A DNA stretch of 45,326 nt from a virus (taxonomy: Duplodnaviria; Heunggongvirae; Uroviricota; Caudoviricetes), in IMG/VR virus record IMGVR_UViG_2778261532_000009, positions 1 through 45,326 of that record. One strand, given 5' to 3'. Position numbers: made by a program. This document shows, one piece after another, positions 19,901-28,900 of the stretch. Each line of letters opens with the position of its first letter. The first letter of the stretch is position 1.

Positions 19901-22900
19901 GCTGCCCGGCATTCTCTGTTTAAGCACAACCATTTCCTGACGGCATAACACAGCAATAGCGGTCCTGGCACCAATTTGCTTACCAACCAGGTATTGCTTT
20001 ACCTCGCGGCGACTCACGCCATCAAGAAGCATCTTTAACGCTTCACGGGACAATTTGTTGTATTTGCGTGCCATTAATCTACTCCGCAGAACCATACAAT
20101 CTACGTAACGTGTCGGCGACAGAAGATACAGATATCTCTCCGGTCGCAGCCCCTACGGTAAGGTCTGCCAGTTCAGGTGAATCAAATACCTGCACCCCGT
20201 TACGGCGTAGAAATAACAGCGCACTGTTTAGCGCGGTACGCTTATTGGCATCATTGAATATATGCCCTCTCGCTGTAGCCACTAGGTAGGTGGCGGAGAC
20301 TTCGAAAAGGTCGGTGATCTCTTCGTAGGCAACTCTGGCCTGAACTCTCCCGATAATGGCCTCTGCCCTACCCGGATCTGACATTCCCGGCAGGCCGCCG
20401 TAGCGGTTTATATTCGCATCATGAAGCGCAATAAGTTCTTCCGGTGATATATGCCTCATTATCGGTTAACCAGTTCCTTGTTGGTGGAGTCCAGGGTGTC
20501 AAACAGGGATGCAAATTCAGCATCCAGCGCCGCTTTTTTGTAGGCTTCGAAAGTAGCCTTGCTGACAATTACTGCTGGCTCACGGCCTCTGCGGGTGATT
20601 TCAACCTCTTCCCCGGCTTCAACATTGTTGAGCACTTCAGAAAGGTTGCCGCGCGCGGTACGGAAGTTAATGGATTGCATAAACACCTCGTGTACTCGTT
20701 ATGTGTACACAATTATAAACTTCACAGGCATAAAGCACCAGCACTTTGCGGCTTAACAAACCTCTAGGCAGGTCATTCGTAGCCTAATGTCCGAACTGCT
20801 AAAGCATCCAAGTTGCTGTAGAATCACCGCCAATTACATAAGCCTGAAATAAGTGGATGAAAATGACAAGTATTCAACAACGTGCAGAGCTTCATCGTCA
20901 AATCTGGCAAATTGCTAACGATGTCAGAGGTTCTGTCGATGGATGGGATTTTAAGCAATACGTTCTGGGCGCACTTTTCTACCGTTTTATCAGCGAAAAT
21001 TTTTCCAGTTATATGGAAAATGGTGATGACAGCATCTGTTATGCGGCACTTGATGACGGCATTATTACTGATGACATTAAAGACGATGCCATCAGAACCA
21101 AAGGCTACTTCATCTACCCCAGTCAGCTTTTCTGCAACGTAGCGGCGAAAGCAAATACCAATGACAGACTGAATGCAGATTTAAATAGTATCTTCGTTGC
21201 TATCGAAAGCTCTGCTTACGGTTACCCTTCAGAAGCTGACATCAAAGGTTTGTTTGCTGATTTCGATACAACCAGTAACCGCCTGGGGAATACCGTTAAG
21301 GATAAAAATGCCCGCCTGGCCGCGGTTCTGAAAGGGGTTGAAGGGTTAAAGCTTGGCGACTTTAACGAACATCAGATTGACCTGTTCGGCGATGCCTATG
21401 AGTTCCTGATTTCTAACTATGCCGCGAATGCCGGTAAGTCCGGCGGCGAGTTCTTTACACCGCAGCACGTCTCTAAGCTGATTGCACAACTGGCTATGCA
21501 CGGGCAGACCCACGTTAACAAAATCTACGACCCGGCAGCAGGCTCCGGTTCGCTGTTGTTGCAGGCTAAAAAACAGTTTGATGACCATATCATCGAAGAA
21601 GGTTTTTTTGGTCAGGAAATCAACCATACGACCTATAACCTGGCACGTATGAACATGTTTTTGCACAACATCAACTACGACAAGTTTGATATCAAGCTGG
21701 GCAATACGCTGACTGAACCGCACTTCAGAGATGAAAAACCGTTTGATGCCATCGTTTCTAACCCGCCGTATTCGGTGAAATGGATTGGCAGCGATGACCC
21801 GACGCTGATTAACGATGAGCGTTTTGCCCCGGCTGGCGTCCTGGCCCCCAAATCAAAAGCTGACTTCGCGTTTGTATTACATGCGCTGAACTATCTTTCG
21901 GCCAAAGGTCGCGCCGCGATTGTCTGCTTCCCGGGTATTTTTTACCGTGGCGGCGCAGAGCAGAAAATCCGTCAGTATCTGGTCGACAATAACTATGTCG
22001 AAACCGTGATTTCACTCGCACCGAACCTGTTCTTTGGCACCACCATTGCTGTAAACATTCTGGTGCTGTCTAAACATAAAACGGATACCAAAGTTCAGTT
22101 TATTGACGCCAGCGAGCTGTTCAAAAAAGAAACTAACAACAATATCCTGACCGATGCCCATATCGAACAGATTATGCAGGTATTTGCCAGCAAGGAAGAT
22201 GTTGCCCATCTGGCGAAATCTGTTGCGTTTGAGACTGTTGTCGCGAATGACTATAACCTGTCGGTGAGCAGTTATGTTGAAGCGAAAGATACTCGCGAAA
22301 TTATCGATATCGGTGAGCTGAATGCTGAGCTGAAAACCACGGTCAGCAAAATCGACCAGTTGCGCAAAGATATTGATGCGATTGTGGCTGAAATTGAAGG
22401 CTGCGAGGTGCAGAAATGAGCGAGATGAGTTATCTGGAAAAATTGCTGGATGGGGTTGAAGTTGAGTGGTTGCCATTGGGGGAAGTCTCAGCCTTAAGAA
22501 GAGGCAGAGTTATGTCAAAGGGATATTTAACTGAAAATTTTGGCCCATATCCTGTCTATAGCTCTCAAACTGCAAATAATGGGAAAATAGGTTCTATCAA
22601 TACCTTCGATTTTGATGGCGAATATATAAGCTGGACAACAGATGGCGCAAATGCAGGCACTGTGTTCTATCGAACAGGTAAATTTTCAATAACTAATGTT
22701 TGCGGCCTGATTACATTAAAAAGTAAATACTCATTAATCTACAAATTTCTGTTTTACTGGCTAACAATAGAAGCCAAAAAACATGTTTACTCAGGAATGG
22801 GAAACCCCAAGTTAATGAGTCATCAGGTTGAAAATATACCTGTACCAATCCCCTGCCCGGATAATCCGGAAAAATCCCTTGCCATCCAGTCTGAAATCGT

Positions 22901-25900: not shown

Positions 25901-28900
25901 GTTATACAGAGTATATGGAAGGCTTTACTGATGCTGCTACTGGTGAAGCTAAACGCGGCTTTATGACAGTAGTTTCAGAACTGGAACAACGGTTCCCTGA
26001 CCCTACCAGTATTGAAAGTGAAAAAGAGAAGAAAGACTTCGTTAAACTGTTTGGCGAATACCTGCGTGCCGAGAACATCCTGCAAAACTATGATGAATTT
26101 GCCACGCTGAAAGCCCTGCAACAAATCGATCTTAGCGATCCTGTTGCGGTAGAAAAATTCAAAGCAGAACATTATGTGGATGATGAAAAGTTCGCTGAAT
26201 TGCAAACAATTCGTCTCCCTGCTGATCGCAAGATTCAGGATTATCGTTCTGCCTATAACGATATTCGCGACTGGCAGCGCCGTGAGAAAGAAGCTGAGAA
26301 AAAAGAGAAATCAACCACTGACTGGGATGACGTGGTTTTTGAGGTTGATTTGCTGAAGTCTCAGGAAATAAACCTGGATTATATCCTTGGACTGATTTTC
26401 GAACACAACAGACAAAATAAAGGCAAGGGCGAAATGATCGAAGAGGTCAAACGCTTAATTCGTTCAAGCCTGGGGAACCGTGCTAAAGAGGGCCTGGTGG
26501 TCGATTTTATTCAGCAAACGAACCTGGATGATTTACCGGACAAAGCCAGCATCATTGACGCATTCTTTACGTTTGCTCAACGCGAACAGCAACGTGAAGC
26601 AGAAGCATTGATAAAAGAAGAAAATCTCAATGAAGATGCAGCAAAACGCTATATTCGCACGTCTTTAAAACGCGAATACGCCACCGAAAATGGCACAGAA
26701 TTAAACGAAACATTACCAAAACTTAGTCCGTTGAATCCGCAATATAAAACGAAAAAACAGGCAGTTTTCCAGAAAATCGTCTCGTTTATTGAGAAGTTTA
26801 AAGGCGTAGGCGGAAAAATATAGCCCAATTCGTGTTTTTCTTGCGGGTTCTTAATTAAACCCGCAAGAGCTCGTGGGGTTCCAAATGGCTAATATACTCC
26901 CCTTACCCATGCGCGACGATGCCGCCAAAAGTGATAGAGAACAGCCAGAAATAGATCGCGGCCATAATGATTTTGAATGCCGTGTTCATATTTTCAGCTC
27001 CTGTGATTGATTGGATACATGCCGCGCCTTGCGGCATGTTTTTATTTTCACTTTCTCTGTTTTAAAAATCAAGATTTATTAGAGCAATTATTGCTGATGG
27101 AGAAGCGCGTTTTCATACTCCCTGACCATTAACGTAAGTACGCCGTGACTCCTGAAAACACGCGCCACGTCAATCTTATCTTCCAGCGCGAACGCAATTT
27201 TACTTAGACCAATTTTCTTCAGGAGATCAATCTTTGCTGGACCGTCATTTCTGTCATCGGTGGCAGGACGCATAGATAGCAAAGGCTCAGTCCCATTTGT
27301 TACGTGCTTACGCAACCAGGCTCGTGTTTTATCCCTGGCTATCTCACAGCGCCCGGTTACAAACCAGAGGGTGTAAATGCCGGACAACTGGCGCACCATA
27401 TCAATAACTGGAGTGATGGGAGCATCAGTGTCACAGGCAAGGTTAAACTCGTTCCAGTGCTCTGTTAATGCACCTTTGCCAGGTGGTGGAAGTAAATGCA
27501 GCCTGTCTTCCGTTGCCTCTGATATCGTCCCATCAATATCTACTATGACGATGTACGGACGTTCCTGGTGTGCGTGTTTATTGAAAATACTCAAATGCCC
27601 TCCTCATTGGACGAAAAAAATGCTGGTGGGAGCACTCCACCAGCATTAAAAGTGACACTGTAACTATCAGCGAACGTAAATAGTGCCGCCGTTCTCTTTT
27701 TCCCATGCATCGCTACGTGCATAGCAAACATCGAGAAGTCTTCTTGCCGCAGTTTCCTCTAAACCCAATTCGACAACCAACTGCTCATGACGGCGGGTAA
27801 CCACATCAAACAGGGTATGCAGCCCTTTAGTTGCCAGATCATCAATGAATTCCGGTTCGAACGGCAGCTCTGCATCTGCCAACATAACCTCTTGCGCCCA
27901 CTCAACTCGACGGACCAATTCCGGGCGGCGGCTTTCCATCTCTTTACAGATCAATTCATGGAAGAACTCTACCCAACCTTCCGGCTGGAACTCGCGGAAA
28001 ATTGCCAACGGCTGGAAGTTTGGCATCAACCATTCGTTGATTCGGATATCAATGGCATAGCCCATGTCGCAGCAGAACTGATAAGCAAAGTCCAGCTTAG
28101 ACACGATATAAGGACGCTCGTTATTGAACTCTTTAGGCGATGAGATCCCATAAGCCAGGAGGCGCGGGAAGAAGGATATTTGCCCTAACGTCGGATGAAG
28201 TTTGCTTGCAGGGAAACGGCGCTCAGTAATGCCATACATTTCCTTCTTGAGCGTCGCAAATTTGGCATTCTCATTAACCAGCGCGGTAACCTCTGCTTTT
28301 TTATTAGCAAATGCCACGCGCGCTTCGCTTGCATCTTTAATAGTTTTTTTGAGCTGTTGGTTAAGGTCGGCGACCTGCTTACGCAGTTCCTGTCGCTCGC
28401 TTTTAGCTTTGTTATAGCGTTTCTCAAGGTTAAAAGGATCAAGTTTCATGATCTCTTTATATTGAGATTTTAGCGTTGAAATCTGTGAGTTCCGCAGTTC
28501 AACCATCGCGGTCATTTCATTGAGTTTTGTTTCCAGCTCAATGCTTATACGTTCGGCATTATCAGCACGCTGGTTGGCGTCATGCGTCGCATCGTCGAGC
28601 GCGTCCTGTTGCTGGCGTTTCAAATGTTCAATTTGCAGCTGAAGCTCTTCAATTTCTTTATCCTTCAGACCGAGATCCAACTGCATATTTTCAGCTGCAT
28701 CTACCAGGGAGTTATGGCTATCAGCTTCTGCGTTATAAACATCAATAAGCTGTGCGTGAAGCATCTCCGCTGACTGAACCGCATTATCAAAAAAACGCGC
28801 TGTGAGGTCATCACAACTAACGCGGCGTTGCGCGGCCCGGATGTTCTGGATAATGGCCTGGATACCGGCATTCAGGACGTCAGGGATAGATACATTTTCG

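Follow-up and report, generated by a model that had tools for sequence, protein, structure and literature searches.

Type IC hsd loci flanked by DNA of bacteriophage P1 were reportedly described by Tyndall et al. in 1997 (Mol Microbiol 23:729). The pmgT-humD block of P1 is variable region 8 of P1-like phage-plasmids (PMC9603915), and the P7-like plasmid pMCR_SCKP-LL83 (MF510496) has the gene order doc, hsdM, hsdS, "EcoR124II R protein", pap and pmgS (PMC5786510). In EcoR124I, EcoR124II and engineered hybrids, two and three TAEL repeats in the specificity subunit HsdS give a target spacer of N6 and N7, respectively, and gain or loss of one 12-nucleotide (nt) TAEL unit is a documented natural mechanism in EcoR124I/II (PMC3874165). 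Here, positions 1 to 45,326 of the IMG/VR virus record IMGVR_UViG_2778261532_000009 (Caudoviricetes) were analyzed as one stretch of 45,326 nt, hereafter the window, in which an hsdM-hsdS-hsdR operon was found at 20857-26823 between the P1 backbone genes phd/doc and pap. Its sequence makes it very probable that this operon is a complete, apparently functional type IC restriction-modification system of the EcoR124 family, carried as accessory cargo by a P1-like phage-plasmid at the variable phd/doc-pap site.

The hsdM-hsdS-hsdR operon and its type IC assignment

All three genes were found to be present and intact, and no internal stop codons were found in them. The hsdM open reading frame (ORF; 20857-22419, plus strand) encodes 520 amino acids (aa) with matches to Pfam N6_Mtase (2.6e-121) and HsdM_N, and its 3' end overlaps by 4 nt the start of hsdS (22416-23585, plus strand), which encodes 389 aa with two Pfam Methylase_S domains (7e-53). 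The hsdR ORF (23707-26823, plus strand) encodes 1038 aa with the Pfam domains HSDR_N, SWI2_SNF2/ResIII, T1R_D3-like and EcoR124_C (1.9e-71). The NCBIfam model TIGR00497 scored 647 bits against HsdM (cut-off, 243), the NCBIfam hsdR model scored far above its cut-off on HsdR, and PADLOC labelled the three ORFs MTase_I, Specificity_I and REase_I, respectively. The NPPY methyltransferase motif was present at HsdM residue 302. In HsdR, the nuclease residues of the PD-(D/E)xK (D151, E165 and K167) and QxxxY (Q179 and Y183) motifs were intact, as were the motor motifs Walker A (GSGKT at 310) and DExH-type (DECH at 408).

The coordinates give the order M-S-R, in which hsdR forms a unit of its own downstream. 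This is the type IC layout; in families IA and IB, hsdR comes first. HsdR aligned with the HsdR of EcoR124I (PDB 2W00) over 1-1038 with 2293 bits and approximately 99% identity, and only scattered substitutions were seen in the displayed part of the alignment. HsdM aligned with the EcoR124 M protein (PDB 7BST chain D) over residues 1-520 with 1148 bits and, judged by this alignment score, appears to be near-identical to it. When HsdS was compared end-to-end with the EcoR124 HsdS (7BST_A), the N-terminal, central and C-terminal constant regions were identical, and both recognition domains, at residues of approximately 23-145 and 211-335, were diverged. These alignments place HsdM and HsdR in the EcoR124I sequence (complementation) group and identify the locus, at the level of its protein sequences, as a member of the EcoR124 group of type IC systems whose specificity subunit differs.

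A first-pass annotation of the window, made from the sequence alone, had placed a type IC hsdM-hsdS-hsdR operon at 20857-26823, divergent from phd/doc. The ORFs lie exactly at these coordinates, with Pfam, NCBIfam and PADLOC in agreement, and the divergent arrangement was confirmed by coordinates, Pfam matches and identity to P1. The type IC label held as well, given the HsdR identity and the HsdM score, together with the HsdS constant regions and the TAEL repeat. The ORF positions, domain assignments and divergent phd/doc layout are not attributable to chance.

The hsdS-hsdR intergenic region (23586-23706, plus strand, 121 bp) contains a sigma-70-like site at 23613-23642 that, by analogy with the EcoR124 organization, is a putative separate promoter of hsdR. 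An EcoprrI-type locus, in which hsd genes are combined with an anticodon nuclease, was considered and rejected because this gap contains no ORF, and thus no prrC-like gene. At the right end of the module, just past the hsdR stop codon, there is a GC-rich hairpin of 11-12 bp at 26839-26867 (z-scores of -3.0 and -3.5), with a U-tract on neither strand. An Rfam scan of the module found no known RNA family inside it.

If the system follows the EcoR124 model, hsdM and hsdS would be co-expressed, and hsdR would be expressed from its own promoter, 121 bp downstream. The M2S1 complex would methylate adenine in each strand of a bipartite target, which the two HsdS recognition domains would determine, and joining of HsdR to form R2M2S1 would lead to ATP-driven translocation of unmethylated DNA and cutting at a distance. 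A lysogen would in this way be protected from unmodified phages and plasmids, its progeny DNA would be marked, and the adjacent phd/doc addiction module would stabilize the whole element. A naive host can acquire a type IC system because a second HsdR, which binds weakly, is required for cleavage (PMC12707154).

Several observations weigh against a functional system carried by a phage-plasmid. Only two deposited phage genomes were found with hsd at this site, and both have damaged copies. In phi456 (4117-6554), hsdS is split by an IS5-family DDE transposase. In vB_EcoM-673R5 (2563-8514), the annotation breaks hsdM and hsdR into several pieces, which may reflect true frameshifts or errors of sequencing. 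Since the copies in both phage records are damaged, carriage of an active system by infectious particles is putative. Moreover, the extra 12-nt repeat in hsdS, described below, could in principle be an assembly error. The damaged copies in related phage records would also agree with an operon that is an inactive relic, either unexpressed or non-functional. Such a relic is highly improbable in the window, where three full-length ORFs have every checked catalytic motif intact and HsdR is approximately 99% identical to the active EcoR124I enzyme; the locus is also identical across independent assemblies, which argues against decay.

Module boundaries and the polymorphic phd-pap site

When the window was compared by blastn with reference P1 (NC_005856), homology stopped at window position 20756 and restarted at 26899, and both junctions were also seen base by base. 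The hsd module (20757-26898, 6142 bp) contains hsdMSR plus 100 bp 5' of hsdM and 75 bp 3' of hsdR, the latter with the strong hairpin, and its GC content was 43.4% (38% for hsdS) compared to 48.8% for the window. Positions 20756 and 26899 correspond to 2457 and 5945, respectively, of a stretch of the P1 record (L001), and on the P1 side one junction falls at the humD stop codon and the other within a few bases of the pmgT start codon, on its upstream side. What the module replaces in reference P1 is a 3487-bp block, pmgT-humD, and the annotated gene order there is phd, humD, lxr, hot, upfO/N/M, pmgV/U/T and pap. The window is collinear with P1-like phages from approximately 10218 to 45326, with an identity of 96-98%, and the site occupied by the module in this P1-like phage-plasmid (Punavirus) is that of variable region 8. 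This interruption of P1 homology makes the locus a replacement at a site where the backbone is variable. A move of the nine displaced P1 genes to another part of the window was considered and rejected, since tblastn gave no matches to them.

The first-pass annotation had stated that reference P1 has genes such as humD at this position and a type III system elsewhere, and had proposed a swap of defence cargo at a backbone hotspot, to be checked by alignment to P1. In the P1 annotation, humD does adjoin phd, and the type III genes res/mod (EcoP1I) lie at a different locus in another variable region. The breaks in P1 homology bear out the swap, and the alignment of the cargo region set its boundaries at 20756/20757 and 26898/26899. 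The same hsd operon was not found at this position in reference P1, which has the humD block there.

The same two junctions can be read from the P1 RefSeq record itself. Its misc_features mark L001 1780-2458, on the phd/doc side, as 98% identical to the DNA that precedes the EcoDXXI hsd locus. On the pap side, L001 5945-6164 and 5945-6028 are marked as 96-98% identical to DNA downstream of the EcoDXXI hsd locus and to R124/3 DNA downstream of hsdR, respectively. These annotated flank homologies end at L001 2458 and begin at 5945, which are the junctions of the module in the window. The locus, with phd/doc DNA on one side and pap-side DNA on the other, is a known P1-associated type IC cassette, because its two junctions coincide with those of the EcoDXXI and R124/3 hsd loci. 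The arrangement was recognized decades ago and is widespread.

Its prevalence was estimated by counting the PLSDB records that covered at least 80% of a query. The phd-hsdMSR-pap stretch was found in 533 records and the full P1-type phd-to-pap stretch in 4 records, and 401-bp probes across the phd/hsdM junction and the P1-type phd/humD junction were found in 663 and 478 records, respectively; these counts include non-P1 plasmids carrying the phd-hsd-pap fragment alone and are not frequencies among true P1-like phages. In NZ_CP062902.1, humD and hot are kept and the hsd module follows them; its left end is the same (20758) but is joined to different DNA. We regard the site as a two-state or multi-state polymorphism in which the type IC module is the commoner state. 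Reference P1 is therefore not representative at the phd-pap site, the type IC system being its commoner occupant.

The higher counts for phd/hsdM over phd/humD and for phd-hsd-pap over the full P1-type stretch, the intermediate NZ_CP062902.1 with humD and hot beside the hsd module, and the status of pmgT-humD as variable region 8 (PMC9603915) also speak for another explanation. In it, the locus would not be a gain of cargo relative to a P1 ancestor but one allele of a site at which two or more have long coexisted, and pmgT-humD may be the derived state, or both may be exchanged by homologous recombination in the conserved flanks. Alternative alleles of this kind are quite possible, although we do not favor them: the GC content of the hsd module is below that of the backbone (43% vs 49%; hsdS, 38%), and part of the PLSDB counts comes from non-P1 plasmids with the phd-hsd-pap fragment alone. 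Moreover, a copy of hsdMSR with 85% nucleotide identity was found in Escherichia coli RQTN01000003.1 (1-14000), in an integrase-bounded chromosomal island without P1 flanks, which fits an imported module. In that contig the type IC copy lies directly downstream of a gene with a GmrSD_N domain and beside type II secretion genes.

The exact module boundaries are reusable in typing. The main value of the result is in annotation and bookkeeping, and the current understanding is unchanged.

TAEL repeats and the specificity allele

The part of hsdS that encodes the central coiled-coil spacer has three 12-nt tandem units (TAEL-TAEL-TAEL; 22929-22964, plus strand), as seen in sequence and translation. 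The closest HsdS relatives in a large protein collection were 385 aa long and 97-99% identical over their full length, and the closest of them (P0001) was 99% identical to the window HsdS apart from a 4-aa indel equal to one TAEL unit. All relatives from P0001 to P0013 had two TAEL repeats, and the two-repeat S allele was encoded in phd-hsdMSR-pap order by 21 P1-like contigs; one strain that carries it is that of assembly GCA_002226535.1. When the draft E. coli contig NLID01000025.1 was aligned with window 18001-29500 (11.5 kb), there were no mismatches and one 12-nt gap.

By its sequence, then, HsdS is a three-TAEL derivative of an otherwise two-repeat allele. The three TAEL repeats and the EcoR124I/II precedent lead us to expect an N7 rather than an N6 spacer: the third repeat is predicted to lengthen the target spacer from 6 to 7 bp, with the same half-sites as in the sibling alleles. 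By the same analogy, the 12-nt gain in an otherwise identical 11.5-kb background may be a newly arisen natural N6-to-N7 specificity switch, and the only point specific to the element is this predicted, probably recent spacer variant of a known S allele. The three-repeat HsdS would add a second natural case to the spacer switch of EcoR124I/II, with NLID01000025.1 for isogenic comparison.

The exact 389-aa HsdS was absent from a collection of approximately 15 billion proteins. This absence, the two repeats in all close relatives and the error-prone nature of short tandem repeats in some assemblies would be consistent with a third repeat that arose as an artefact of sequencing or assembly, in which case HsdS would really be the common 385-aa two-repeat allele with no change of specificity in this lineage. 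However, a 12-nt in-frame unit is atypical for a homopolymer-type error, and exactly this unit is gained and lost naturally in EcoR124I/II (PMC3874165). Repeat numbers in other genes also make an artefact unlikely. Among 80 metagenome loci retrieved by unrelated peptide patterns, 33 related genes were found, 12 with three TAEL repeats and 18 with two, and the units of any one gene hardly ever differed from each other, a pattern that marks ongoing slippage. A third repeat is thus nothing unusual among natural alleles.

The exact 42-nt sequence of the repeat, (GAGCTTACAGCA)x3 followed by GAGCTT, was found in at least 120 species representatives of many phyla (among them Clostridia, Flavobacteria, Gardnerella, Snodgrassella and Mycoplasmatales) and in 5 viral contigs. 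Conservation of the triple repeat across phyla at the DNA level was considered and rejected, because 12 kinds of coding were found among the 75 TAEL units of the metagenome sample and the coding of the window was a minority among them (8 of 75). The wide distribution of 42-nt matches follows from the size of the family and from a sample conditioned on the exact match.

No near-identical hsdS with at least 80% coverage was found in PLSDB or in 5426 complete E. coli genomes, and the allele was seen in draft assemblies only. The sole hsdS match in these two sets with at least 80% coverage was CP064340.1 (211198-212294), a 239.7-kb record labelled as a plasmid of Lactococcus lactis, in which 97% of the gene aligned at 73% nucleotide identity. 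The HsdS encoded in this record (P0034) has the same pair of recognition domains at 75-77%, and proteins of Streptococcus suis have the same pair at 63%. From the matches in the Lactococcus-labelled record and in S. suis, the recognition-domain pair is spread across phyla. The HsdS of the E. coli island in RQTN01000003.1 also has this pair, at approximately 89%. No solved structure or named homologue sharing the HsdS recognition domains was found, nor was a literature link from these domains to a motif.

Window 22430-22918, which comprises the N-terminal recognition domain and the N-terminal constant flank, was found with 99% nucleotide identity in the HsdS gene of NZ_CP062902.1 (5304-6545) at the position of the C-terminal domain. 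This match indicates a recognition domain that has moved between the two positions of one gene. Such movement of recognition domains is described for Helicobacter type I systems.

Flanking genes, other features and comparison with known systems

To the left of the module, the P1 backbone genes for the antitoxin Phd (20459-20680, minus strand; Pfam PhdYeFM_antitox) and the toxin Doc (20079-20459, minus strand; Pfam Fic/DOC and P1 annotation) are both 98% identical to P1 at the nucleotide level. The divergent spacer between phd and hsdM, counted from the phd ATG, is 176 bp (20681-20856), and pdcA, pdcB and lpa lie beyond doc on the minus strand. The right-hand neighbor is the P1 backbone gene pap (27088-27594, minus strand; Pfam HAD_PNKP, a HAD/PNKP phosphatase), with 98% identity to P1, and pmgS comes next. 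The possibility of neighboring partner systems had also been raised in the first pass; it was not borne out, as PADLOC profiles run on seven flanking proteins found no partner defence genes. Doc matched PDC-M59B (3e-7) and PmgS matched LmuB (3.6e-4) weakly and non-specifically, and the latter match is probably due to coiled-coil similarity. The module boundaries leave no room for anything besides hsdMSR. A multi-gene defence island was rejected, since no added defence genes immediately flank the operon.

The P1-backbone DNA between the right junction and pap contains several small features. P1 annotates the operator OpmgT and the promoters P1pmgT/P2pmgT at the homologous position, which was aligned here. 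The PpmgT promoters and the C1 repressor operator Op88/OpmgT (ATTGCTCTAATAAATCT; 27072-27088, minus strand; one mismatch to the operator consensus) are kept at 27040-27088 and now point leftward at the 3' end of hsdR. An intrinsic-terminator-like hairpin with a T-run (27017-27039, plus strand; z-score of -5.2) lies between the PpmgT promoters and an ORF for a hydrophobic 28-aa peptide; it is terminator-like on the plus strand only and, from its sequence and position, is likely the stop for hsdR transcripts. The 28-aa ORF (MNTAFKIIMAAIYFWLFSITFGGIVAHG; 26903-26989, minus strand), preceded by an AGGAG ribosome-binding site, lies between PpmgT and the pmgT position, with its stop codon 4-6 nt inside the right junction. 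P1, phi456 and NZ_CP062902.1 have this ORF in the same or almost the same form; it is unannotated in the P1 RefSeq record and had no Pfam match.

As a result of the swap, PpmgT and Op88 are stranded beside the module and face the 3' end of hsdR. On the minus strand downstream of PpmgT, only the 28-aa ORF and a hairpin without a U-tract were found, which makes induction-dependent antisense transcription from the C1-repressed PpmgT into hsdR conceivable, though it is improbable. If these promoters fired on inactivation of C1, restriction would be active in the lysogen and damped in lytic growth, and would thereby be tied to the lysogenic state. To our knowledge, no such lysogeny-linked switch has been described for type I systems. 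In the whole window there were 12 C1-operator-like sites, compared to 0.25 expected by chance.

Elsewhere in the window, positions 1-10210 form a resistance-transposon composite that reaches the left edge and matches parts of many enterobacterial plasmids at 99.7% identity. It contains blaTEM-1 (275-1135, minus strand), a Tn3 resolvase and transposase (1318-5044), IS1133 (approximately 5381-6531) with an Rfam match to RNA-OUT beside it (5304-5373, plus strand), and a second resolvase with a second Tn3-family transposase (7290-10175). P1 homology begins at approximately 10218 beside cra/cre; in P1, ref, mat and the type III genes res/mod lie on this side. The C4 antisense RNA and isrK of the P1 immunity I region were found by Rfam at 15235-15426 on the minus strand. 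ARAGORN detected tRNA-Met, tRNA-Thr and tRNA-Asn at 40379-42132 on the minus strand, as in P1/P7-like elements.

The locus was also compared with known systems. EcoP1I of reference P1 is likewise a restriction system on a P1-type element and lies in another variable region (PMC9603915), but it is of another enzyme class (type III), has the two genes res/mod at a locus beside cre/ref/mat and is unrelated to the three-gene type I operon. EcoprrI, of the prr locus, belongs to the type IC family and has three TAEL repeats (PMC3874165), but in EcoprrI prrC lies between hsdS and hsdR, whereas the window has a 121-bp gap without an ORF. The type IC archetype EcoR124I/EcoR124II (plasmids R124 and R124/3) shares with the locus the hsdM-hsdS-hsdR order, an HsdR with approximately 99% identity, identical HsdS constant regions and the central-spacer TAEL repeat, which differs in number by one 12-nt unit; P1-derived DNA downstream of hsdR is common to R124/3 and the window. 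In contrast, both target-recognition domains of the EcoR124 HsdS are unrelated to those found here, so that the half-sites of the window system are not expected to be GAA and RTCG, and the EcoR124 host is a conjugative IncF plasmid rather than a P1-like phage-plasmid.

The order doc-phd, hsdM-hsdS-hsdR and pap-pmgS is shared with pMCR_SCKP-LL83, NLID01000025.1 and the Escherichia phages phi456 and vB_EcoM-673R5, although the two phages have other HsdS recognition domains. The EcoDXXI hsd locus of plasmid pDXX1 has the identical junctions with P1 DNA and, like the window, three TAEL repeats (PMC3874165). It differs in that only short P1 remnants flank the EcoDXXI locus, whereas the module described here sits in a long collinear P1-like backbone (approximately 10218-45326).

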